A DNA stretch of 27,967 nucleotides from an uncultured Bacilli bacterium. GTDB taxonomy: Bacteria > Bacillota_I > Bacilli_A > RF39 > UBA660. The stretch is taken from the NCBI GenBank assembly GCA_947626095.1, contig CANQQV010000019.1, forward strand, positions 1 through 27,967, given 5' to 3'. The notes under the pieces are model-generated. The model did no database searches and was not told the DNA's origin. It worked only from the letters and a program-made list of their open reading frames with translations. Position 1 is the stretch's first letter, and every line of letters starts with the position of its first letter. The position numbers and the translations under genes are program-made. Positions 1-12,127 of this stretch are shown here, piece after piece.

Positions 1-92
1 TGCTAATCCCATATATACAAGACCTGCATCATATGTGTTTGGAGCTTGTTCTTCTGGCTTAGCAGCAGGTTTCTTATTATCTTCTGCTTTTG
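1..92 (-). repeat. 3' constant anchor block, copy 1 (partial)
   Basis: Matches the corresponding parts of 2187-2326, 4393-4532 and 5725-5864. Confidence 0.95.
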
Positions 93-1156
93 ATGGATTT
101 ACTGTTACTACACCATTTTCAGTTGTAGTTGTTGCATTTCCAACTAGATCTTTTTCTGCTTCAGCAGCTTTTGTTATTCTAGTTCCTTCTTTTACATCTC
201 CAACGATTGAACCAGTGAATTTTCCACCTGTAATCATATTTTTATGATTTGCTAAGAATTCTTCATTACGAATATGTAATGCTGGAAGTTGATTTCCTTT
301 AGCATCCTTACCAGATGTAATTTTTCCATCAGTAATTTTGTATGTTCCTTTTGATCCATCGAACCATACAGCTTCATTATTTTCACTTGCTGATGTAATT
401 TCTCCACCTGCAATTGTTAAAGCATTTGTGTATTTTCCTGTTGGATCTTTAACATATATAGCACTATTATTACCAGTAGCTTTTAAAGTACCTGCATTAA
501 CATTTAAAGTACCGTTTACTAACTTAAATACATATGCATTTGAAGTATAAGTACCACCATTAACATTAACTACTGATTTACCAGCATCTAATACTATTAA
601 AGCATTTGATGCGGTTAAAGCTGTTGCTTTAACATTAGCATTTAAGTTGATAGTTAAATTTTCATCTTTATTTGGTTCACATGCAACGATTTCATTAGCT
701 ATTTCCCATTTACCATTAATATTAACTACAGTTTGTTCTGTTGCATCATCAACTTTAACAACTGAATTAGTATTTAATGCGCCTTTAACAGTAACGTCAC
801 TTGCAAAAGTTAATGTTGATGCTTTGTCTTTTGAGTTTACTACAAAGTTTTGAGTATGTGTTGTAGTATCAATAGTACCATTTGTAATAGTCACATTAGC
901 ACCTTCAACTTTTAATATACCACCAGTACCCATTGTTAAAGTTTGTTCATTTAAGTTAATTGTTACATTTCTGTTAATTACTGTTGTAGTAGTAACATTA
1001 AATGTTTTTCCATCTAGTAATACTATTTCTGCAGTTTCATCTTCTTTAACGTCAGCAATAGCATCTTTTAAGTTATTAAAGCATTGATATTGTCTACTAC
1101 CTGAATAATCTACATAATACCAATGTCCACTACATTCGTCATGTTTAACTGGTTCT

Positions 1157-1188
1157 GCACTAACAGTAACTACTGATAGTAATATTGC
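1157..1188 (-). repeat. 32-bp 5' cassette-junction repeat, copy 1 (identity to copy 4 extends to 1208)
   Basis: gcactaacagtaactactgatagtaatattgc on + strand; identical at 3427, 5660, 6944; encodes AILLSVVTVS(A) on minus. Confidence 0.97.
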
Positions 1189-1208
1189 ACATAGTGCAAA
1201 TTAAGGAT

Positions 1209-1231
1209 AAAAAAAGAAGGATTAAACTTCT
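1209..1231 (-). terminator. Weak intrinsic terminator after Rpn-like gene 1
   Basis: Minus strand AGAAG-tttaatc-CTTCT followed by a T run, overlapping the stop codon. Confidence 0.45.
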
Positions 1232-2120
1232 ATAATATCGGCATACTAAGTCGTTTGGATAATTCTTCTTTAGTCATACCACTTGATAGTAATTTATTTA
1301 TGATATTATTTCTTTCTTCTTTTATACCGGCTTGACGTCCTTCTTTAATACCTGCCTGACGCCCGTCTTTAAGTCCTTGTCTACGAGTCTTTCTTAATAC
1401 TCTCTTTTCTATATTTCTAGCTAATTCCTCTTTTACACCTTCAAGGTACAAATTATAATCATATGTTGGAAGTTCGTCATCTAATGCTATTTCTTTTATT
1501 TTTTCCATTACTCTCACTCTCTTTCTATTATCTTTAGCATATGAAGCCATCTCTTTATAACTTCTAGTAGCAAACATAGCAAAATCTTTATATATATCAT
1601 TATCATTAGTATAACATAGCTTTTTAAATGCTGGTAAAAAAATATTAATAATTTCTATATCTTCAATTGTATCATTTAATTTTGTATCTCTTAATTTATA
1701 TCTACTCATTGGACATTTCATATTACCACGATAATAAAAACCATTAAAATTTATTTGAATAACTCGAATTTTACCTTCATATTTATTTATAACGTTTCTT
1801 TTATACATACCACCAGCTATTTTATATAAATAACTATTATTTTTATTATTAGTAATTTTTAAATTAATCGGATTTAACTCGATATTAATTTTAGTTTGTT
1901 TATCAGGTGACTCTAATAGGATATCTACCCTACTTGATATATCATTTACTCTATCTATTGGAATCTCATTCATTTTAAAAGAATAATTACTAATATCTAT
2001 ATCAACAATATATAATATTAAATTTCTAAAATAATCTTTAATAAGTTGGTCATCACTTTGCCACAATGTTTTAAATACAATATCCTGCATTAAGGATATA
2101 AATTTTAATTCTTTTCTCAA
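1230..2120 (-). CDS. Rpn family (PD-(D/E)XK nuclease/'transposase'-like) protein 1
   Basis: LMQDIVFKTLW N-terminal motif, RVDILL...INIELN catalytic-type motif, IQINF strand, C-terminal GxxxG repeats (GRQAGIKE x2) and short HTH-like tail; TTG start with GGGAGG RBS. Confidence 0.8.
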   Translation of the reverse strand: MRKELKFISLMQDIVFKTLWQSDDQLIKDYFRNLILYIVDIDISNYSFKMNEIPIDRVNDISSRVDILLESPDKQTKINIELNPINLKITNNKNNSYLYKIAGGMYKRNVINKYEGKIRVIQINFNGFYYRGNMKCPMSRYKLRDTKLNDTIEDIEIINIFLPAFKKLCYTNDNDIYKDFAMFATRSYKEMASYAKDNRKRVRVMEKIKEIALDDELPTYDYNLYLEGVKEELARNIEKRVLRKTRRQGLKDGRQAGIKEGRQAGIKEERNNIINKLLSSGMTKEELSKRLSMPIL

Positions 2121-2142
2121 GGAAATAATCCTCCCTTCACTT

Positions 2143-2174
2143 TAATTATTCGCGATTGAAAGCCTATTTCCTTT
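2143..2174 (-). promoter_or_regulatory. SigH-like promoter motif upstream of Rpn-like gene 1
   Basis: Minus: AAAGGAAAT-11 nt-CGCGAATAATTA, resembling the SigH consensus AGGAWW-N11/12-GAAT; recurs at 4349-4380 and 20945-20976. Confidence 0.6.
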
Positions 2175-2186
2175 ATTTTTTATTTA

Positions 2187-2326
2187 ATTTCTTAATTTTC
2201 TAACAGAAACAACACTTGCACCGATTGCACTTAATGCTAATCCCATATATACAAGACCTGCATCATATGTGTTTGGGGCTTGTTCGTCTGGTTTAGCAGC
2301 TGGTTTCTTATCGTCTTCTGCTTTTG
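2187..2326 (-). repeat. 3' constant anchor block, copy 2 (140 bp)
   Basis: 2187-2276 (90 bp) is identical to the copies at 4393 and 5725, including silent sites; the remainder has a few substitutions. Confidence 0.95.
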
Positions 2327-3426
2327 TTGAAACTACTACTTTGTATGGATCTTCAGTTTTAACTGTGTAACCTTCAGCTACTAATTGATTAGTAACATCA
2401 ACAGTACCACCTTCAGTATCAACAACTTTAGCAATAATATTAGTTAAATATTTACCACCTGTTAAGATACCTTTAATTGCTGGAACAACAGTTGTTACAC
2501 CATCTTCTGTTTTAGTGAATGCGCCATCTAACTCAATTGCTGCTTTCATATTTTTACTGCTTTCAAAAGTACCATCAGTAATTTTATAAACAGCTTTTGT
2601 ATTGTTTGAATATATTGCATATGCAGTTTCACTAGCAATAGTTCCACCATTAACAGTTAATTTAGTCGCATCAGTTGTACCATTAACTATAATAGCGCCA
2701 TTACCTTTTGCGTATAAATCACCACTTGTTACAACTAATTCAGCACCATTAACTCTAGCAACAGCTTGATCACTATTAATAGTAGCACCATTAACAGTAA
2801 CAACAACGCCACCAGTTAGTGTCATTGCTTCTGCAGCTGTAGTATAAGTACCATTAACAGATACTGTTGATGCAGGATTTATTTTTGTAGCAGCAGCTGT
2901 TGAAGACATTACAGATACAATTGATGATACATTATATTTACCATTTAATGTAGCTTTAGCACCAGCTTTTGCTGTATATAAAACTTGTGCATTTGGTAAA
3001 TTGAAATCAGCACCTGTAACATCAGCAGTTCCTTCATTTACAATTATTTGATGAGTATAAGCTCCTGTCATTTTTAAGTTTTGTAAACTTAAACTACCAC
3101 CAACATTAACATAGAATGGTTGATAACTACTATCGTTAACAACTAATTCACCGTTTTTAACAGTTAACTTAGCATCTTTAGCAACATTATATTGACCAGA
3201 ACTAGCTGTAAGTTTATGACCATTCAAATCAATAGTTAATGTTTTAGTAATGCTTTTAACATCTCCTAAACTAGCATCAGCATATAGTGTTATTGTACCG
3301 CCGTCATTATAAGCAGCTGTCCAAGCATTACCTTGTAATAAGAAACCTCTGTCGCCAACTTTAGCAGTACAATCATTAGTTTCTTTAGCTGTTTTACCAT
3401 CAGCTGGTAATTCACATTCACCGGCT

Positions 3427-3458
3427 GCACTAACAGTAACTACTGATAGTAATATTGC
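3427..3458 (-). repeat. 32-bp 5' cassette-junction repeat, copy 2
   Basis: Exact match to the other three copies; similarity stops abruptly at 3459. Confidence 0.97.
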
Positions 3459-3467
3459 TTTAATATT

Positions 3468-4331
3468 TTATAGTATTGGCATACTAAGTCTTTTAGATAA
3501 CTCTTCTTTAGTCATACCACTTGATAATAATTTATTTATAATATTTGTTCTTTCTTCTTTTATTCCTTCTTTAATGCCTTCTTCACGACCATCTTCTCTT
3601 ATACTCTTTTCAACTGCTTTACGATAAGCTATACGCATAGCTTCTGTTTCATAATCTTCATTATCAATAATTCTTTTTTCTAAATCTTTCATTACACTTT
3701 CCCTTTCTTTATTACCTTGAATATATTTTTTCATTTCTTTAAAACTTTGAGCTGTAAACATTTTATAGTCTAATAGTTCTTCTGCATTTTTATTATAGCA
3801 TATATTAGATAATATTGGTAAATAAATATTAATTATTCTTATATTTTTTAAACTTCTATTACCTATTTTATTTTGAATACTATATTCATCAATATCTAAT
3901 TTGTTATATTCTTTATCAGCAAAAGCATTAATATTTACTTGGTCGATTAAGATATCTTTAGCATAGAAACTATCGCCTCGATTATAGAAATTACCAGCTA
4001 TTTTATGTAAATAAAATACATTACGTTTTAACCAATATCTTTTATCAACTCTATTTATTTCAATATTTAGTTTTCTTGATTTATCTTTAGATACTAAAAG
4101 AAAATCTAGTCGATTATCTTGACTGATAACTTTATCAGCAACTATTTCATTGTAATATAAATTAAAATTTCTAATATCATAACCGACAATTCGCTTAATA
4201 ACACGATTAATAAATTTTATAGTATTTGGTCCACCATTAAGCCATAAATATTTTAATACACGATCTTCAGTAAGAGGATGAAAATCATAGAACTCTAGTT
4301 TTATTTCTTTGGGAATATTTTGATTATTCAT
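3468..4331 (-). CDS. Rpn family (PD-(D/E)XK nuclease/'transposase'-like) protein 2
   Basis: PLTEDRVLKYLW, RLDFLL...LNIEIN, DGREEGIKEGIKEE repeats; same C-terminal tail as protein 1; ATG with GGGAGG RBS. Confidence 0.8.
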   Translation of the reverse strand: MNNQNIPKEIKLEFYDFHPLTEDRVLKYLWLNGGPNTIKFINRVIKRIVGYDIRNFNLYYNEIVADKVISQDNRLDFLLVSKDKSRKLNIEINRVDKRYWLKRNVFYLHKIAGNFYNRGDSFYAKDILIDQVNINAFADKEYNKLDIDEYSIQNKIGNRSLKNIRIINIYLPILSNICYNKNAEELLDYKMFTAQSFKEMKKYIQGNKERESVMKDLEKRIIDNEDYETEAMRIAYRKAVEKSIREDGREEGIKEGIKEERTNIINKLLSSGMTKEELSKRLSMPIL

Positions 4332-4348
4332 TAATTACCTCCCTACTT

Positions 4349-4380
4349 TAATTATTCGTGATTGAAAGCTTATTTCCTTT
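4349..4380 (-). promoter_or_regulatory. SigH-like promoter motif upstream of Rpn-like gene 2
   Basis: Minus: AAAGGAAAT-11 nt-CACGAATAATTA; near-identical to 2143-2174. Confidence 0.6.
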
Positions 4381-4392
4381 ATTTTTTATTAA

Positions 4393-4532
4393 ATTTCTTA
4401 ATTTTCTAACAGAAACAACACTTGCACCGATTGCACTTAATGCTAATCCCATATATACAAGACCTGCATCATATGTGTTTGGAGCTTGTTCTTCTGGTTT
4501 AGCAGCTGGTTTCTTATTATCTTCTGCTTTTG
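4393..4532 (-). repeat. 3' constant anchor block, copy 3 (140 bp)
   Basis: Direct comparison with the other copies. Confidence 0.95.
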
Positions 4533-5659
4533 TTGAAACTACTACTTTGTAGTTACCTTCTTCTTTTACTGTGTAACCTTCTGCAACTAAATCATCAGTA
4601 GCATCATAATTTGCACCACTTACAGTATTTTTTATAACACCGATAATATTATTCAAATATCTACCACCAGTTATAATATCTTTTTGATCAGCAATTAGTT
4701 TACCAGTTTTTACATCAAAGAATGCAGTATCTAGACTAATAGCAGCAGCATCTTTATCACCTTTAGCTTCATAAGTACCACCAGCTAAAACATATTTAGC
4801 TTTTGCATTTCTAAGTAATAAAGCATGTCTTCCAGTAAGTGTAGAAACTAATGTACCACCATTAACAGTTAATGAAGCAGTATCAGCAGTACCTTCAGTT
4901 TGTACTGGAGCACCATTTGAAGTTAAAGTACCACCATTAATAGTAACTTTAGCATTATATAACATAATTACATTAACAGCAGGAGCACCTTCTCCTGGTT
5001 TAGTATTAAATGTACCGCCATTGATTGTAACATTCATACCTTTGTCAGCTTGAATAGCAGTAGCAGTAGTAGTATATGTACCACCATTAACTATTACTTT
5101 TGCATCAGCTTCATTATAACCTTTATTATAACTACTTGCAGGACGAACAACAGTAGTAGCATCTACTTTACCATTTAATGTAACTGTAGAATTAGGTAAA
5201 ACATCTATAGCTACATGACCAGTACTATCAACTGTAGTATTAGCACCAACTGTTAATTCACCAGCAACAGTTGCTAAACCATTAGTAGTAGCAGTAACGT
5301 TTGTAGCATTTAAAACAAATTTACCACCTTTATTAACTGTAAACGCTTTTGCAACAACTACATTTTTAGCATTAATAGTTAATGAACCACCATCAGCAAC
5401 AGTTAATACACTAGAAGCTCCACCTAAAGTTAATTTAGCATCACCATACATATTGATAGTTACGTTCTTATCGATAGTTACATTTGAACCTGTTGCTATT
5501 GTTGCATCGTCATAGAATGTAACATTCTTACCATTAGTAAGTGCATCATTATATGCATCAAGAGCGCTACCATAACCTTCACCATCGATAGATGCATGAC
5601 ATGCATTATGTACTGTAAGATCATCAGGACTAAGCGTACAACCTGGTTGGGTATTAGCT

Positions 5660-5691
5660 GCACTAACAGTAACTACTGATAGTAATATTGC
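5660..5691 (-). repeat. 32-bp 5' cassette-junction repeat, copy 3
   Basis: Exact match; shares 5 further bases (acata) with copies 1 and 4. Confidence 0.97.
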
Positions 5692-5724
5692 ACATACTTT
5701 GTTTTCTTAAATCAATAATTAGTT

Positions 5725-5864
5725 ATTTCTTAATTTTCTAACAGAAACAACACTTGCACCGATTGCACTTAATGCTAATCCCATATATACAAGACCTGCA
5801 TCATATGTGTTTGGAGCTTGTTCTTCTGGCTTAGCAGCAGGTTTCTTATCGTTTTCTGCTTTTG
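5725..5864 (-). repeat. 3' constant anchor block, copy 4 (140 bp)
   Basis: Direct comparison with the other copies. Confidence 0.95.
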
Positions 5865-6943
5865 ATGGATTTACTGTTACTACACCATTTTCAGTAGTTG
5901 TTGTTGCGTTACCAACTAAAATTGCTGTTGCAGCTGCAGATCTTGTCCAAGTATCTGTTGCAGCATCAGTTTGAACATCACCAACTATTGCACCAGTAAA
6001 TGATCCACCACTTATCATATTAGCATGATTTGCTAAGAATGTTTGTGAAGCAATGTATAATGCTGGTAGTTGTTTTTTATCTTTTTTACCAGAAGTAAAT
6101 GTTCCACCAGTAATACTATAAGTACCAGTTTCTTCACCAGTTCCACTACCAAAATATAAAGCATATTTGCCATCAGTTTTTGTAGTAATATTACCAGCTG
6201 AAATATTTAATGTAGTAGTTAGGTTTTGACCAGGTTTTTCAACAACTATAGCATGTCCACCATTAGCTGTTAAATCTCCACCTTTAACATTTAAAGTACC
6301 ATTCTTAACCATAAAGACTGATTTATTAGATGTATAAGTACCACCTAATACATTAACTGTTGAAGTACCAGCATCAACTGCTACTAAATAATCAGATTGT
6401 AGGTCAGTAGCTTTAACATTAGCATTTAAATTTACAGTTAATTTTTCATCTAATCCATTACTACATGCAACAATTTCATGTTTAACTGTCCAAGTACCAT
6501 TAATATTAACAACGGTTGTATTAGATGCATTAGCAATTTGAATAGCTGATGTAGCATAGTAAGTTGCATTAACTGTAACGTCACTAGCAATTGTCAATGT
6601 AGATGCTTTTTCAGATGAATCAACAACGATATGTCCTTGATTAGCAATTAAATCTAGTTTACCATTCTTAATAGTAACATTAGCACCTTTTACTGTAACA
6701 TTTTGAGTACCAGTTACAGGTGTTGTAAGTTTATGACCATTTAAATTGATAGTTATATCTTTAGTAATATTTACTGGTCCACCTATAACCATATCTTTTA
6801 AAAGAACTAATTCACCATTTTCATTTTCTTCTAATGAATTTAATGCATTAGTAACATTATTACCACAAGTATATGTTCCGTTTCCATGATCTAAATACAA
6901 ATAGTTATTTGAACATCTACTAGGGCTGTCTACAGTACTTTCA

Positions 6944-6975
6944 GCACTAACAGTAACTACTGATAGTAATATTGC
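6944..6975 (-). repeat. 32-bp 5' cassette-junction repeat, copy 4 (52-bp identity with copy 1, to 6995)
   Basis: Exact match; the extension contains the palindrome TTGCAC-ata-GTGCAA. Confidence 0.97.
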
Positions 6976-8437: not shown

Positions 8438-8466
8438 AAAAAAAAGACTATTCTACTAGTCTTTTC
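8438..8466 (-). terminator. Intrinsic terminator after giant sigma gene
   Basis: AAAAGACTA-6 nt-TAGTCTTTT hairpin with T run on minus. Confidence 0.6.
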
Positions 8467-11400
8467 GATACAATAATCGTTCTTGAGGTGATAATTTTAG
8501 TTGAGTATCTAGAGTATCTAAGAGTTTATATAAATGATTGAGTTCTTTACCAGTTAGAAATTCTCTTTCACTGATATCATATATGGCCATTAATTCGTTT
8601 TTCGTACTTTTCTTTAAATCTTGACCATATTTTTTTAATAAAGCTATGACATCTTCTCTAGTTGCGGTACTAAAATCAAAGGCATTAGGATAGATATCTT
8701 TAATTAAATCATTAATTATATAGTATGATAAGTCTTCTTTTAAGCCATTGATATTACGACTACTAGTTATTTTATTAAAGTATCTTAAATAATATAGTTT
8801 ATGTTGATAAGACATATTTTGATGATTTCTTAAGTAATAAGCATAGATATCTTCAAATGAGAAAGTGGTTTCTTTAACGATACCATCTCTTAGTTTACAG
8901 ACACTGAGCATTAGATTACTAATAACTCGATTAATAGCGGATGTCTTTAAATCAAGGTTTAATTCCTTAATAATGGCTGGAACACTTTTGCGTTCGTCAC
9001 CATCCATACCAAATGCTAAGTTAAAGATTTTAATGGCTAAATCTAAATCACCATAAAATGGTAAATCAGGATTTTTAATAGCTTCTTCATAGTAAGCAAA
9101 ATCAAAAACTTTAGTATTATTTAAGTTATTCATAAGTTCATATAAGTTAATTTTAATTCTTTCCATAATACTAACCATTTGATGGAAGTTAACATGACAT
9201 TTAGTAGCTATTTCTTCATATGATAAACCGTTTTTATAGAAATCTTCTAATTTAATTCGATCACTAGGAGCAAAGTACTTTAATAATGGGATAATATCAG
9301 TATCATAATCGATTTTACCGTCAATTTCTTTATTTAAATATTTATAGATAGTAACGATAGCTCGTTGATATCTTCTTTTAAGACTACCTTTATTATCATT
9401 AAAGATACTAGTTAGTTCGTTAAGAGTTTTATATGGATAACCTTTAAGTTCAAATAGGTAACAGATTATTTCTTTTTCTTTAGGACTTATTGGTAGATGT
9501 TTATCATCTAATAGTTTATCTAGTTCTTGACGAGGAATATAAAGTAAATCAGGTTTTAAGATTCCTGCTTTACGGCTTTTAATTTTTCTAATAATGGTCA
9601 TATATTTATGCCAGTAACTTGCTTTAGTAAGTTTATATTTAGCTATTAGGCCATTATAATCTAGTTTAAGACCGGAAGGATTATAGCGATTAGTAAGACC
9701 TAAGTAGAAACTAATTAATTCTTTTTCAGAATCGTTTAAGACTGATTCACTTGAATGTTTATCGACTTCTTCTTTAATATCATTATCATCAATCGTAATA
9801 TCTTTAATTAAATAGCTTTCATATAAATTATTAAAATGTTTTAAAGCACTTTTAATAATATTAATATCTAGATTTAAGTAATCAGCAATATCTTCAGGCA
9901 TCATGTTTTCGACATAACGGCAGATAATTATTTTAGCTTCTTCTTTAGTTAGATTATTTTGATAATTTTTTAAGAATTCTTTTAATTTAGTTTTAGGAAT
10001 ATTTGAGGTAGTAGTAAGACCAAAACGGTAATTATCCATTTTTCGAATAGCATCGGTAATAATATTGGATATTCTAGTTTTATTTAAACCAGTTTTAGTA
10101 CTTATTTCATCGTATGATAAACCTTGAATAATAAACATATCAAGAATTTCTCTTGTTTCTTTAACAAAGTAATACTTAGGATTAGTAATATATTTTTTAT
10201 ATATATTTGGTTTAATTTCCACACGATAATTAGCTAGACCACTATATAGTTTAATGGCATAATCACGAGCTTCACGACATAAATCATGAGCTTTGATGTA
10301 GTCTAGTTTTAAAGTTTCAGCTATTTCACTGATAGAATAGACTTTGCCATTAACACCATAGTACATATCTAAAACTTGAATCCTTGAGGCACTTAGTTTA
10401 TCAGGATATTTCTTTTTTAATTGTTCGTACATTTCTTTAGTAAAAGTATTATCAAAGAATCTTAAGATATGATAGTAACTTCTTTCTAAACGATCAATTA
10501 AGAAATAGTAACGATAATATAAAGTTGAATCAGGATATTGGCTTTTAAATACACTTTTATCTTTTTGACCAAAGTAATATGTTTCTAAGAATAGTTGTTG
10601 CTCATCATTGAATTCGTTTTTTATTCTTAAATACTCTTGATATAACTTATCTTTAGGAACATTCATATCTTGATGTTTAAAACCAAATAAAGTTATATTG
10701 ATATCGATTAATAATTCTTCTTCCTTAAGACCTTTTCTAACTTTTTGGCCATAATATTTAGCGAGTAATCTTTCTTCATCAACTGTTAGATTATAGTCAA
10801 TGCTTTTAAAGAGATTTAAGATATCATCTAAACTCATACTACTATACTTAGCGGTTAGTTTTTGATAATCAATTTCTTTGGCACGTTTTGGAATATCAAT
10901 ATCAAAGATTTTAGTACCATAACTTTTAATAGTAGATAAACGATATTTTTGATATTTTTCTTGATTTTTAAATTTAGTTTGAAGTTTATTTCTTAAGCTT
11001 TGGTAAGCACTTTTTATATCGGCAACACTAACATTTAATTCATAAGCTAATTCTTCTAAGTTATAATTATATTTACTAAAGACTTTTAAATATAAGATTC
11101 TTTCTTCTAAGTATTCTAAATCAGCTTGAAGATATAAGTATTCAATTATTTTATCAGGATGTAACGGTTCTTTTTTTAAACGATTAACTCTTAGTCCTTC
11201 TCTTTTAGCAATATTATTATATGTACTAGTCATTTTAGTACTATTGGGACTCATATATATTTTTAACTTTTTTAGAGCTTTAGATTCTAATTGACGAATT
11301 CTTTCTCTAGTTAGATTAAAATAGGAAGCTGTTTGTTCTAAAGTATAGTCTTCCCCACTTAAAATACGATAATAAATAATAAAATAATGTAAAGGCGATA

Positions 11401-12088
11401 ATACTTCTTTTAAAGTTACTAATAAAGTATCATTGACCATGCGATTTAAGACATCGTCATAACCGGTTTCAGTACTAGGAATAAAATTGCCTAATTCAGT
11501 TTCAGAATCATCATCAACTGTTTGATCGATACTAACTGGAGTTTGATTGATTGCATCTCTGATGTTTTTTAAAGTTTCTTTACTGATATTAAGAGCAGTA
11601 CATATTTCTTCATCGCTTAATTTCTTACCACAAGAATTATTATCATTTATTAACTTTTTATAACGACGGATGGCTTCGATAAGATGAACTGGTTTTCTAA
11701 TGGTTGAATCTTTATCAGCAATAGCTCTAGTAATACCTTGTTTAATCCACCATACGGCATAAGTAGAAAAAGCACCCTTTTCCGGGTCATAATCTTCAAC
11801 GGCACGCATTAAACCCATATTACCTTCTTGAATAATATCTAAGATATCTAAATGTTTAATAATATTACGATAATGATTAGCCACACTAACTACTAATCTT
11901 AAATTACTATTAATTAGTAATTCACGGGCTTTATAATCACCAGTTTGATACTTTATTGCTAGTTCTTTTTGATCTTCACTAGATAGAATTGGATATTTAG
12001 AGATGTCGCGCATATATAATTTAAAGGCATTATCACTAAAGGTATTTACTAGTTCTTCGTCGGTTAATATTGTGATATCTTCATCCAT
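8456..12088 (-). CDS. Giant sigma-70 family protein: RpoD-like regions 1.2-4 plus ~930-aa tail of repeated region-4-like HTH units
   Basis: LYMRDISKYPILS (1.2), LINSNLRLVVSVA..DIIQEGNMGLMRAVEDYDP..FSTYAVWWIKQGITRAIAD (2), PVSID (3), YTLEQTASYFNLTRERIRQLESKALKKL (4). ATG at 12088 has AGGTG RBS (track start 12115). Confidence 0.85.
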   Translation of the reverse strand: MDEDITILTDEELVNTFSDNAFKLYMRDISKYPILSSEDQKELAIKYQTGDYKARELLINSNLRLVVSVANHYRNIIKHLDILDIIQEGNMGLMRAVEDYDPEKGAFSTYAVWWIKQGITRAIADKDSTIRKPVHLIEAIRRYKKLINDNNSCGKKLSDEEICTALNISKETLKNIRDAINQTPVSIDQTVDDDSETELGNFIPSTETGYDDVLNRMVNDTLLVTLKEVLSPLHYFIIYYRILSGEDYTLEQTASYFNLTRERIRQLESKALKKLKIYMSPNSTKMTSTYNNIAKREGLRVNRLKKEPLHPDKIIEYLYLQADLEYLEERILYLKVFSKYNYNLEELAYELNVSVADIKSAYQSLRNKLQTKFKNQEKYQKYRLSTIKSYGTKIFDIDIPKRAKEIDYQKLTAKYSSMSLDDILNLFKSIDYNLTVDEERLLAKYYGQKVRKGLKEEELLIDINITLFGFKHQDMNVPKDKLYQEYLRIKNEFNDEQQLFLETYYFGQKDKSVFKSQYPDSTLYYRYYFLIDRLERSYYHILRFFDNTFTKEMYEQLKKKYPDKLSASRIQVLDMYYGVNGKVYSISEIAETLKLDYIKAHDLCREARDYAIKLYSGLANYRVEIKPNIYKKYITNPKYYFVKETREILDMFIIQGLSYDEISTKTGLNKTRISNIITDAIRKMDNYRFGLTTTSNIPKTKLKEFLKNYQNNLTKEEAKIIICRYVENMMPEDIADYLNLDINIIKSALKHFNNLYESYLIKDITIDDNDIKEEVDKHSSESVLNDSEKELISFYLGLTNRYNPSGLKLDYNGLIAKYKLTKASYWHKYMTIIRKIKSRKAGILKPDLLYIPRQELDKLLDDKHLPISPKEKEIICYLFELKGYPYKTLNELTSIFNDNKGSLKRRYQRAIVTIYKYLNKEIDGKIDYDTDIIPLLKYFAPSDRIKLEDFYKNGLSYEEIATKCHVNFHQMVSIMERIKINLYELMNNLNNTKVFDFAYYEEAIKNPDLPFYGDLDLAIKIFNLAFGMDGDERKSVPAIIKELNLDLKTSAINRVISNLMLSVCKLRDGIVKETTFSFEDIYAYYLRNHQNMSYQHKLYYLRYFNKITSSRNINGLKEDLSYYIINDLIKDIYPNAFDFSTATREDVIALLKKYGQDLKKSTKNELMAIYDISEREFLTGKELNHLYKLLDTLDTQLKLSPQERLLYRKD

Positions 12089-12127
12089 AAAAAACACCTG
12101 ATTCTTATTATACAATAAAAAAAAGAA

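Follow-up and report, generated by a model that had tools for sequence, protein, structure and literature searches.

Rpn-like nuclease genes in the junctions of a silent surface-cassette array from an uncultured Bacilli bacterium

Gene-conversion antigenic variation, as in Neisseria pilE/pilS, Borrelia vlsE/vls and Treponema tprK, pairs one expression site with silent cassettes, and the vsa, vsp and vpma loci of Mycoplasma are site-specific inversion systems. Here we analyze a 27,967-bp stretch of DNA (hereafter the window) from an uncultured gut bacterium of the Bacilli, in which two Rpn-like nuclease genes, rpn1 and rpn2, lie between silent cassettes of a putative surface-variation array. 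Both genes are intact and divergent members of the Rpn/PDDEXK_2 family, most Rpn copies of the genome stand directly before a silent cassette, and we consider how they may have reached these junctions and what they might do there.

No cellular role has been settled for the widespread Rpn genes, which are known for a toxicity checked by an internal antitoxin, for phage defence and for promoting RecA-independent recombination. Escherichia coli Rpn proteins raise RecA-independent recombination (PMC5350276), and Zhong et al. describe Rpn as a single-gene toxin-antitoxin (TA) system in which an internal start yields a small C-terminal protein that blocks the long nuclease, with neutralisation requiring matching numbers of a four-residue repeat (PMC10400941). 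A further precedent comes from chromosomal integrons, where, according to Richard et al. 2024 (PMC13108822), promoter-containing TA cassettes stand among promoter-less ones and excessive excision kills cells.

Two intact Rpn-like genes between cassettes

The window is the whole of contig C19 of a metagenome-assembled genome (MAG) of 34 contigs and 1.6 Mb (labelled G000; ~28% G+C; 91% complete, 7.9% contamination). Positions 1–6,975 carry, on the minus strand, four paralogous cassettes of two subfamilies, A and B, and two Rpn-like genes, in the order A, B, rpn2, B, rpn1, A (Table 1). A reading of this DNA made without database searches (the sequence-only reading) had placed two Rpn-like genes inside a cassette array at 1230..4380, and both are indeed intact open reading frames there, 40% identical to each other over 290 aa and with identical final 25 residues. 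Each follows a B cassette (2184–3458 for rpn1 and 4348–5691 for rpn2, box included). Across 293 nt, the junctions of the two units (cassette 3’ end and spacer) are 89.4% identical, which bears out the proposed common spacer of ~50 bp; the spacer before rpn1 measures 63 nt, and that before rpn2 is ~58 nt by register only, because its upstream cassette lacks its own stop and reads on to 4348. At the other end, the two genes share 84.7% identity over 124 nt of their 3’ ends and 100% over the 34-bp box that comes next; the two gene cores give no blastn match to each other. Repeat spacings of 2206–2270 nt define a unit of ~2.2 kb, confirming the suggestion that a ~2.25-kb unit occurs twice. The contrast drawn between the Rpn genes, with strong ribosome-binding sites (RBSs), and the cassettes also holds: GGGAGG or GGAGG lies 6–10 nt 5’ of both rpn starts, and the cassettes have neither a start nor a Shine-Dalgarno (SD) sequence.

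We observed, at window 3459–3470, that the rpn2 stop (TAA) is in frame with the next silent cassette, three codons before its box. Read-through of this stop into the cassette was considered and treated as chance, since the corresponding junction on contig C24 is out of frame.

The relationship of these genes to Rpn is bridged by profile searches. Against TIGR01784 (the Rpn family) the window genes score 35.4 and 26.7 bits (E 1e-8 and 4e-6), and the match to rpn2 spans its full length, residues 23–284 aligning to profile positions 3–265 of 273 at E 1e-8. The family check proposed in the sequence-only reading therefore turned out mixed, with full-length homology on one side and, on the other, scores under the cut-off of 52.1 and no Pfam family at E<=0.1 for either window protein. 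Sixteen of 19 aligned clade members match TIGR01784 at E<=0.01, and D23, D76, E91 and N93 are invariant in this alignment. A search with the clade profile reached 2093 clusters at E<=1e-3, 664 of them at E<=1e-10. We aligned 114 homologues, consisting of the two window proteins and 112 near-full-length profile hits; 102 of them match TIGR01784 (best 1.8e-27) and 43 match PF12784, or PDDEXK_2 (best 8e-26), indicating that the clade is a divergent branch of the Rpn/PDDEXK_2 family. These comparisons support rpn1 and rpn2 as divergent relatives of that family (TIGR01784, PF12784, COG5464).

The catalytic set is retained in nearly all of the 114 homologues (D23 in 108, D76 in 112, E91 in 112, K/R103 in 113), and position 93 is N in 95, Q in seven and Y in seven. 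The motifs IELN and IEIN had been singled out as departures from the usual IExQ; translation does give INIELN and LNIEIN, but with N in 95 homologues E-x-N is the norm of a large subfamily and not peculiar to the window genes. In E. coli RpnA, the catalytic residues are D11, D63, E82, Q84 and R94, whose mutation abolished or altered activity (PMC5350276), and the residue spacing of the window clade matches this set. Equivalence to RpnA is based on spacing, because alignment of the clade to RpnA by hhalign matched the C-terminal tail alone. A structure model of rpn2 (predicted local distance difference test, pLDDT, 71) places a long helix at residues 230–270, and a profile search of PDB sequences returned 0 matches at E<=1.

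By its sequence anatomy each Rpn gene is a self-contained module, with its own putative promoter and SD sequence, a full-length nuclease frame, a candidate internal SD sequence and ATG, and a variable tract of four-residue repeats. The ~50-nt upstream element (A-run, GGAAAT, ~16 nt, GAATA-TA-AGT, GGGAG) is common to all six G000 copies that could be aligned, including a solitary one on C15, the seventh copy (C28) being cut by a contig end. It also precedes six of seven aligned copies from five other species: it is present in four of these species and much weaker in G023. An in-frame ATG at a conserved GNKER.SVM, with a purine-rich AAAGG(G)A(G) upstream, was found in 12 of 14 genes; the AGG within that SD-like stretch is likewise retained in 12 of 14, AGG accounting for 4.1% of Arg codons in G000. 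The G-x-x-x repeats start ~30–40 residues after the candidate internal Met, versus 8–20 in E. coli Rpn (PMC10400941). Their numbers in the seven paralogues are about 5, 3, 3–4, 5, 2, 3 and 5–6, differing even among copies ~90% identical in DNA and varying across the 19-member alignment as well. By this anatomy the long form would be toxin-like, and the 74–92-aa product a putative RpnS-like antitoxin form.

A terminator follows three of the five cassette-linked Rpn copies. The hairpin after rpn1 was not listed by the consensus scan because it has too few G-C pairs, and promoter and terminator sites found by that scan were no more numerous than in shuffles.

Silent cassettes and a single expression site

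The 34-bp box occurs 16 times in G000 (14 times without mismatch and twice with one) and encodes the hydrophobic core of a signal peptide (AILLSVVTVSA). Fifteen of the 16 boxes stand in a frame that either closes a short way upstream or enters from the gene before, and these 15 silent cassettes contain no in-frame ATG, GTG or TTG for 25–85 codons past the box and no SD sequence. The sole box of the 16 with a promoter, RBS and start lies at C21:74-41, where TTGACA-17-TATACT, a 5’ leader, GGGAGAGG and an ATG lead into MKNLKLFVFALCAILLSVVTVSA. This promoter, leader and start recur in another species at the syntenic position (G005:C9:1-120). In all cassettes the frame is open from the box to a conserved C-terminal signal, KKPAAKPEEQAPNTYDAG, followed by a hydrophobic stretch and RKLRN; from this signal and five sortase matches in the genome we infer a sortase-type anchor. 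For a cassette model (pLDDT 83; predicted template-modelling score 0.81), similar structures are parallel beta-helix proteins, tailspikes, alginate epimerases and the PfbA adhesin among them, all at E >0.01.

The expression site, at C21:1-640 (locus L030) with C12:1-950 as its probable 3’ flank, has its ATG at ~110 on the minus strand and lies directly downstream of three silent cassettes. Over 77 nt, the end of the expression-site contig is the same as the start of silent cassette 2 on that contig. On C12 a cassette 3’ end comes first, with a terminator and hisS behind it, and hisS also follows the surface genes at the syntenic locus of G010. From these contig overlaps and the hisS synteny, the order at the expression locus is most likely a Y-gene, Rpn, three silent cassettes, the promoter, the expressed copy and hisS. 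As a whole the array looks like one expression site with many silent copies, a surface-variation-type architecture in which switching is putative.

Next to the expression site, all three silent cassettes break off within the anchor (...NTYDAGLV or ...GLALS; C21:1885-1900 and 3119-3130) and run directly into the following box; cassettes outside this trio keep the whole anchor and a stop. Several silent boxes lie directly 3’ of a hairpin and T-run. We had considered the T-runs before cassettes as slippage tracts and rejected this, as short hairpins precede them and mark them as terminator tails.

Boxes within each contig all have the same orientation, and recA is present in G000. Site-specific recombination was rejected as the leading model for the array, given that no tyrosine or serine recombinase lies near it and that the boxes are direct repeats: four tyrosine and three serine recombinase genes occur in G000, none near any array, and contig-end overlaps do not link the tyrosine ones to it. 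A 15-bp palindrome, TTGCAC-TAT-GTGCAA, stands at window 1187–1201 and before nine other boxes, straddling the 5’ edge of the homology that the expression site shares with the silent cassettes. Boxes that follow rpn2, the C24 Rpn gene or the truncated C21 cassettes lack this palindrome, which is missing from four of the 15 silent boxes. Box DNA folds with z = -2.1. Box structure as a nuclease target was set aside, this z and one palindrome making too weak an argument.

Rpn copies in this genome and its relatives

Seven Rpn copies were found in G000, and five of them (two on C19 and one each on C8, C21 and C24) end 8–42 nt upstream of a silent box, in a genome with only 15 such boxes. This adjacency exceeds chance, and we attach no formal probability to it because the copies are not independent events. 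Upstream, the five box-linked copies have either a cassette (both C19 copies and C24) or a housekeeping gene (C8 and C21). The C15 copy is solitary; that on C28 has non-cassette DNA upstream, as seen from a contig-end overlap with C7, and a different surface-gene pair downstream. The copies on C8, C21, C24 and C28 are 89–92% identical over a stretch that opens ~60 nt ahead of the start and closes at the Rpn 3’ end; between C21 and C8 it continues across the box. Flanks and downstream cassettes vary from copy to copy, identity stopping at the box or at most ~50 nt past it.

Members of the Rpn clade occur in eight of 26 other species of the genus. Among 12 loci inspected in these eight species, one (G005:C9) adjoins a cassette, in divergent orientation; of the other 11, the majority have housekeeping genes as neighbours, some have decayed, and a contig end truncates one (G008). 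Related species hold 0–2 intact copies plus fragments, versus seven in G000, and their decayed genes include stops in G010, a split gene in G006 and fragments in G005. This last species has eight boxes of its own sequence, seven silent and one at the expression site. The sequence-only reading had asked whether Rpn genes are enriched in homologous arrays or scattered, and the answer is divided: within G000 most adjoin cassettes, whereas the homologous arrays inspected elsewhere mostly lack Rpn and the copies of relatives are solitary. To judge from these placements, the solitary arrangement is probably the ancestral state of the clade, which appears to be older than the archive and to consist of a fast-turning-over gene. 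Among the genus genomes compared, Rpn seems to have multiplied in G000 only, along with the tandem silent arrays, and on this view it would not be a conserved part of the switching machinery.

Homologous surface genes outside the archive are full genes with their own signal peptides. At the G010 locus syntenic with the expression site (L013, G010:C1:8000-14100; relA, dtd, two membrane genes ... hisS, aspS) there are four full-length surface genes with their own starts, and neither Rpn nor silent copies occur there. A different genus of the same family (L046/L047, G154:C6:5200-27000) has 11 full-length paralogues in tandem with their own signal peptides and a KRKENN-type anchor, and a sortase lies inside the row. 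No Rpn gene occurs in this row, which may represent the ancestral, non-archive state of the surface family. Rpn is likewise absent at the homologous surface genes of G283 and G044:C5, and on G044:C32 two Rpn-like open reading frames adjoin a surface gene and a sortase. We also noted, in G005 (L002, G005:C48:594-1629), two open reading frames of 193 and 153 aa upstream of an Rpn gene. Their N-termini are unrelated to Rpn and their last ~40 residues resemble its tail; possibly they encode different proteins with the tail domain of Rpn.

With rpn2 as query, public genome contigs gave 11 loci, matching the repeat-rich C-terminal part only, and public metagenome contigs gave three loci, distant or partial; a 32-nt box query returned 0 matches in public metagenome contigs. 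One homologue, P0002, is 72% identical and lies on a 99-kb contig. Five public read runs from two studies (recorded as rabbit gut and gut metagenome) contain part of the C21 locus; they are represented by Logan contigs of a few hundred bases, and no RNA run is listed. No Logan contig in these five runs spans the expression site, and the joints listed have sides of 21–37 nt that may stem from repeats.

Table 1. Positions of genes, boxes and predicted signals in the cassette-bearing part of the window
Feature	Position	Strand	Remarks
Silent cassette, subfamily A	1..1154	-	Runs off the contig inside the conserved anchor
34-bp box opening the cassette downstream of rpn1	1155..1188	-	Signal-peptide h-region; homology to expression site up to ~1201
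Terminator-like hairpin (gaag-tttaatc-cttc) and T7	1209..1230	-	Directly 3’ of rpn1 stop, before the next cassette; read by eye
rpn1 (Rpn-like gene 1)	1230..2120	-	296 aa, TTG start; motif INIELN; conserved tail preceded by five G-x-x-x units
Candidate internal start of rpn1, M205	1506..1508	-	92-aa C-terminal product; SD-like stretch weak here
Putative promoter/SD element 5’ of rpn1	2121..2195	-	A-run, GGAAAT, ~16 nt, GAATAATTAAAGT, GGGAGG; starts in the last codons of the upstream cassette
Silent cassette, subfamily B	2184..3424	-	No start codon for 77 codons after the box
34-bp box opening the cassette downstream of rpn2	3425..3458	-	9 nt past rpn2 stop
rpn2 (Rpn-like gene 2)	3468..4331	-	287 aa, ATG start; motif LNIEIN; D23, D76, E91, N93, R103; three G-x-x-x units
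Candidate internal start of rpn2, M214	3690..3692	-	74-aa RpnS-like C-terminal product; AAAGAAAGGGAA upstream, with the rare AGG codon
Putative promoter/SD element 5’ of rpn2, as for rpn1	4332..4405	-	Frame of the upstream cassette runs through it to a stop at 4348
Silent cassette, subfamily B	4348..5657	-	Stop shifted by 14 codons
34-bp box of the B cassette that precedes rpn2	5658..5691	-	
Silent cassette, subfamily A	5719..6941	-	Model is a parallel beta-helix, pLDDT 83
34-bp box of the first cassette	6942..6975	-	One mismatch; directly after the terminator of the FAD-protein gene

The remainder of the window (7,017–27,787) holds ordinary chromosomal genes, encoding an FAD protein, a 1219-aa sigma-70-like protein, Obg, L21/Prp/L27, MreC, RadC, SMC and RNase III. 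The 1219-aa protein (8456–12115, minus strand) adjoins the array and is unusually long: a complete sigma-70 N-terminal part (regions 1.2, 2, 3 and 4) is followed by ~900 residues with at least one more region-4-like segment.

Possible origin and role of the Rpn modules

The explanation we favour, to which we give about an even chance, is that the Rpn genes are TA-type passengers copied by the array’s own recombination, plausibly penalising deletions as integron TA cassettes do. An Rpn gene of TA or defence type would have landed in a cassette junction, and the module would then have been copied to other junctions by homologous recombination of the array. On its left each module has the cassette 3’ anchor region and on its right the signal-peptide box, both kept homogenised by the array, so recombination between arrays can copy the modules; the same bracketing explains divergent cores within near-identical flanks. 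Once between direct repeats, a promoter-bearing TA gene would penalise deletions that remove the module and would thereby be retained. The sequence-only reading had left two roles open for the Rpn genes, as triggers of cassette exchange or as TA stabilisers of a direct-repeat array. The stabiliser fits better because the modules are self-contained, have their own predicted promoter, look TA-like and have a precedent in integrons, both roles being putative.

Several observations pull against this explanation. The top TIGR01784 score among the G000 copies, 45 bits, is also under the curated cut-off; a Foldseek comparison of the rpn2 model with the PDB gave no match at E<=1e-3, its weak rows including EcoO109I, McrC, NucS and Shedu; and a VIA-wide fold comparison of the same model gave a best Z of 6.2, with McrC at 5.3. 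PADLOC, with four copies scanned, matched neither window protein nor the C15 copy and gave for the C8 copy a single weak match to a ‘putative invertase’ (E 0.0024, below significance). Since G000 is a fragmented MAG, all counts are lower bounds. The C8 and C21 copies, two of the five, stand at the upstream edges of their arrays behind a housekeeping gene, so that deletions between cassettes would spare them and nothing is protected, and the multi-cassette stretches on C2 and C6 have no Rpn in their assembled parts. Moreover, box adjacency in five of seven copies, together with a copy heading the array into the C21 expression site, is tighter than a pure passenger model needs.

These edge copies, the tight box placement, the array-head position and the known recombination-promoting activity of Rpn keep alive a different account, which we judge rather unlikely, in which Rpn nicks or cuts in or near the array and a silent cassette is then copied into the expression site by gene conversion, with or without RecA, using the 34–47-bp box and the 3’ anchor region as homologies. 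Its stricter form, which strikes us as unlikely, has Rpn recruited as the DNA-breaking step of antigenic variation, a junction nuclease opening the neighbouring box or array for short-homology, possibly RecA-independent copying. Here the placement of five of seven Rpn genes 8–42 nt before a box, one of them heading the silent array directly upstream of the C21 expression site, would be meaningful; Rpn genes are also the only enzyme genes inside the arrays, none of the seven recombinase genes lying near. The first 77 nt past the expression-site junction match silent cassette 2, as duplicative conversion predicts, and the box is short for RecA alone, given the minimal homology lengths that RecA needs. 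In addition to its effect on recombination in E. coli, RpnA leaves polymerase-usable 3’-OH ends (PMC5350276). However, a trans-acting nuclease requires neither seven copies nor adjacency, and G005 has the same expression site and seven silent boxes, yet only one of its two intact Rpn genes is near a cassette and none is at the expression locus. The clade is solitary among housekeeping genes in six more species (G004, G006, G010, G013, G023 and G042), the contig-cut G008 copy being uninformative. RpnA shows no sequence specificity (PMC5350276), the box has little structure (z = -2.1, with the palindrome absent from four of 15 silent boxes), and the presence of recA likewise speaks against a dedicated break-maker.

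Rpn could instead be an abortive-infection-type anti-phage defence, placed incidentally in a recombination-prone, insertion-tolerant region beside other fast-evolving surface genes. Its hypervariable tail repeats, the decayed copies in G010, G006 and G005, the C28 copy beside a different surface-gene pair and the G044 surface gene and sortase beside two Rpn-like open reading frames would all suit such a role, and Rpn systems guard against some phages and are enriched near defence genes, abortive-infection-type defence having been shown for a plasmid Rpn (PMC10400941). We nevertheless think it quite unlikely: the surroundings of the arrays showed no further defence genes, what remains of the window being housekeeping (SMC, RNase III, MreC, Obg, L21/L27), PADLOC gave no significant model for the four copies scanned, and the exact junction placement and homogenised flanks are left unexplained. 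That a transposase-like Rpn moves itself and the neighbouring cassette as a mobile element we regard as very improbable. A ~1.06-kb module of promoter, Rpn, terminator and box is 89–92% identical at three to four sites with different left flanks, and the old family annotation reads ‘putative transposase’; but the module lacks terminal inverted repeats and target duplications, has ragged left ends and is followed by different cassettes in different copies, and for rpn genes no evidence of autonomous transposition and variable ends are reported (PMC10400941).

If the modules stabilise the archive, as in the TA-type explanation that we prefer, the TA-policing principle of chromosomal integrons would extend to antigen archives. 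If Rpn instead starts exchanges, it would gain a physiological function and gene-conversion variation a dedicated nuclease, giving a natural job to a recombination-promoting activity so far seen only on overexpression in E. coli. In either case the locus is a compact testable one, in which 15 silent cassettes and a single expression site are accompanied by seven nuclease paralogues whose tails differ in length.

Comparison with described systems places the genes closest to E. coli Rpn (RpnA–E and RpnP2), with which they share a length of ~290 aa and a D...D...E-x-(Q/N)...R/K set with matching spacing (PMC5350276, PMC10400941), as well as a long C-terminal helix with a variable number of four-residue repeats, a candidate internal start for a small C-terminal protein (PMC10400941), a promoter of their own and a copy number that varies between relatives. 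Unlike E. coli Rpn, the window genes fall under the TIGR01784 cut-off, have no Pfam match, carry N for Q and lack the PDDEI motif, of which P alone is kept; they are known here from sequence.

The arrangement resembles the TA cassettes of chromosomal integrons described by Richard et al. 2024 (PMC13108822) in that predicted promoter-bearing TA genes stand among promoter-less cassettes in a long direct-repeat array and in that loss of the TA gene would be penalised here too. Unlike integrons, this locus has no integron integrase or attC, and its cassettes, instead of being unrelated genes, are all paralogues of a single surface protein; unlike integron TA systems, the module is a single gene-within-gene nuclease, with a stabilising effect that is presumed.

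As in pilE/pilS, vlsE/vls and tprK, one locus has the promoter and start, many start-less copies are bounded by conserved 5’ and 3’ sequences, the silent array lies directly upstream of the expression site, and a silent copy is duplicated there, in this case over 77 nt. The locus differs from those systems in its whole-cassette units, which run from inside the signal peptide to the cell-wall anchor, and in the nuclease genes between the cassettes. With Mycoplasma vsa, vsp and vpma it shares a site of ~34 bp in the 5’ coding region of variable surface genes and a small-genome Bacilli/Mollicutes-related organism; unlike there, the boxes of each contig are all direct and no recombinase gene is adjacent. 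Literature searches found no link of Rpn to antigenic variation and no Rpn modules in the junctions of silent antigen archives; by these searches the placement of Rpn genes in cassette junctions is a new arrangement, and the genes themselves are new members of a known family.

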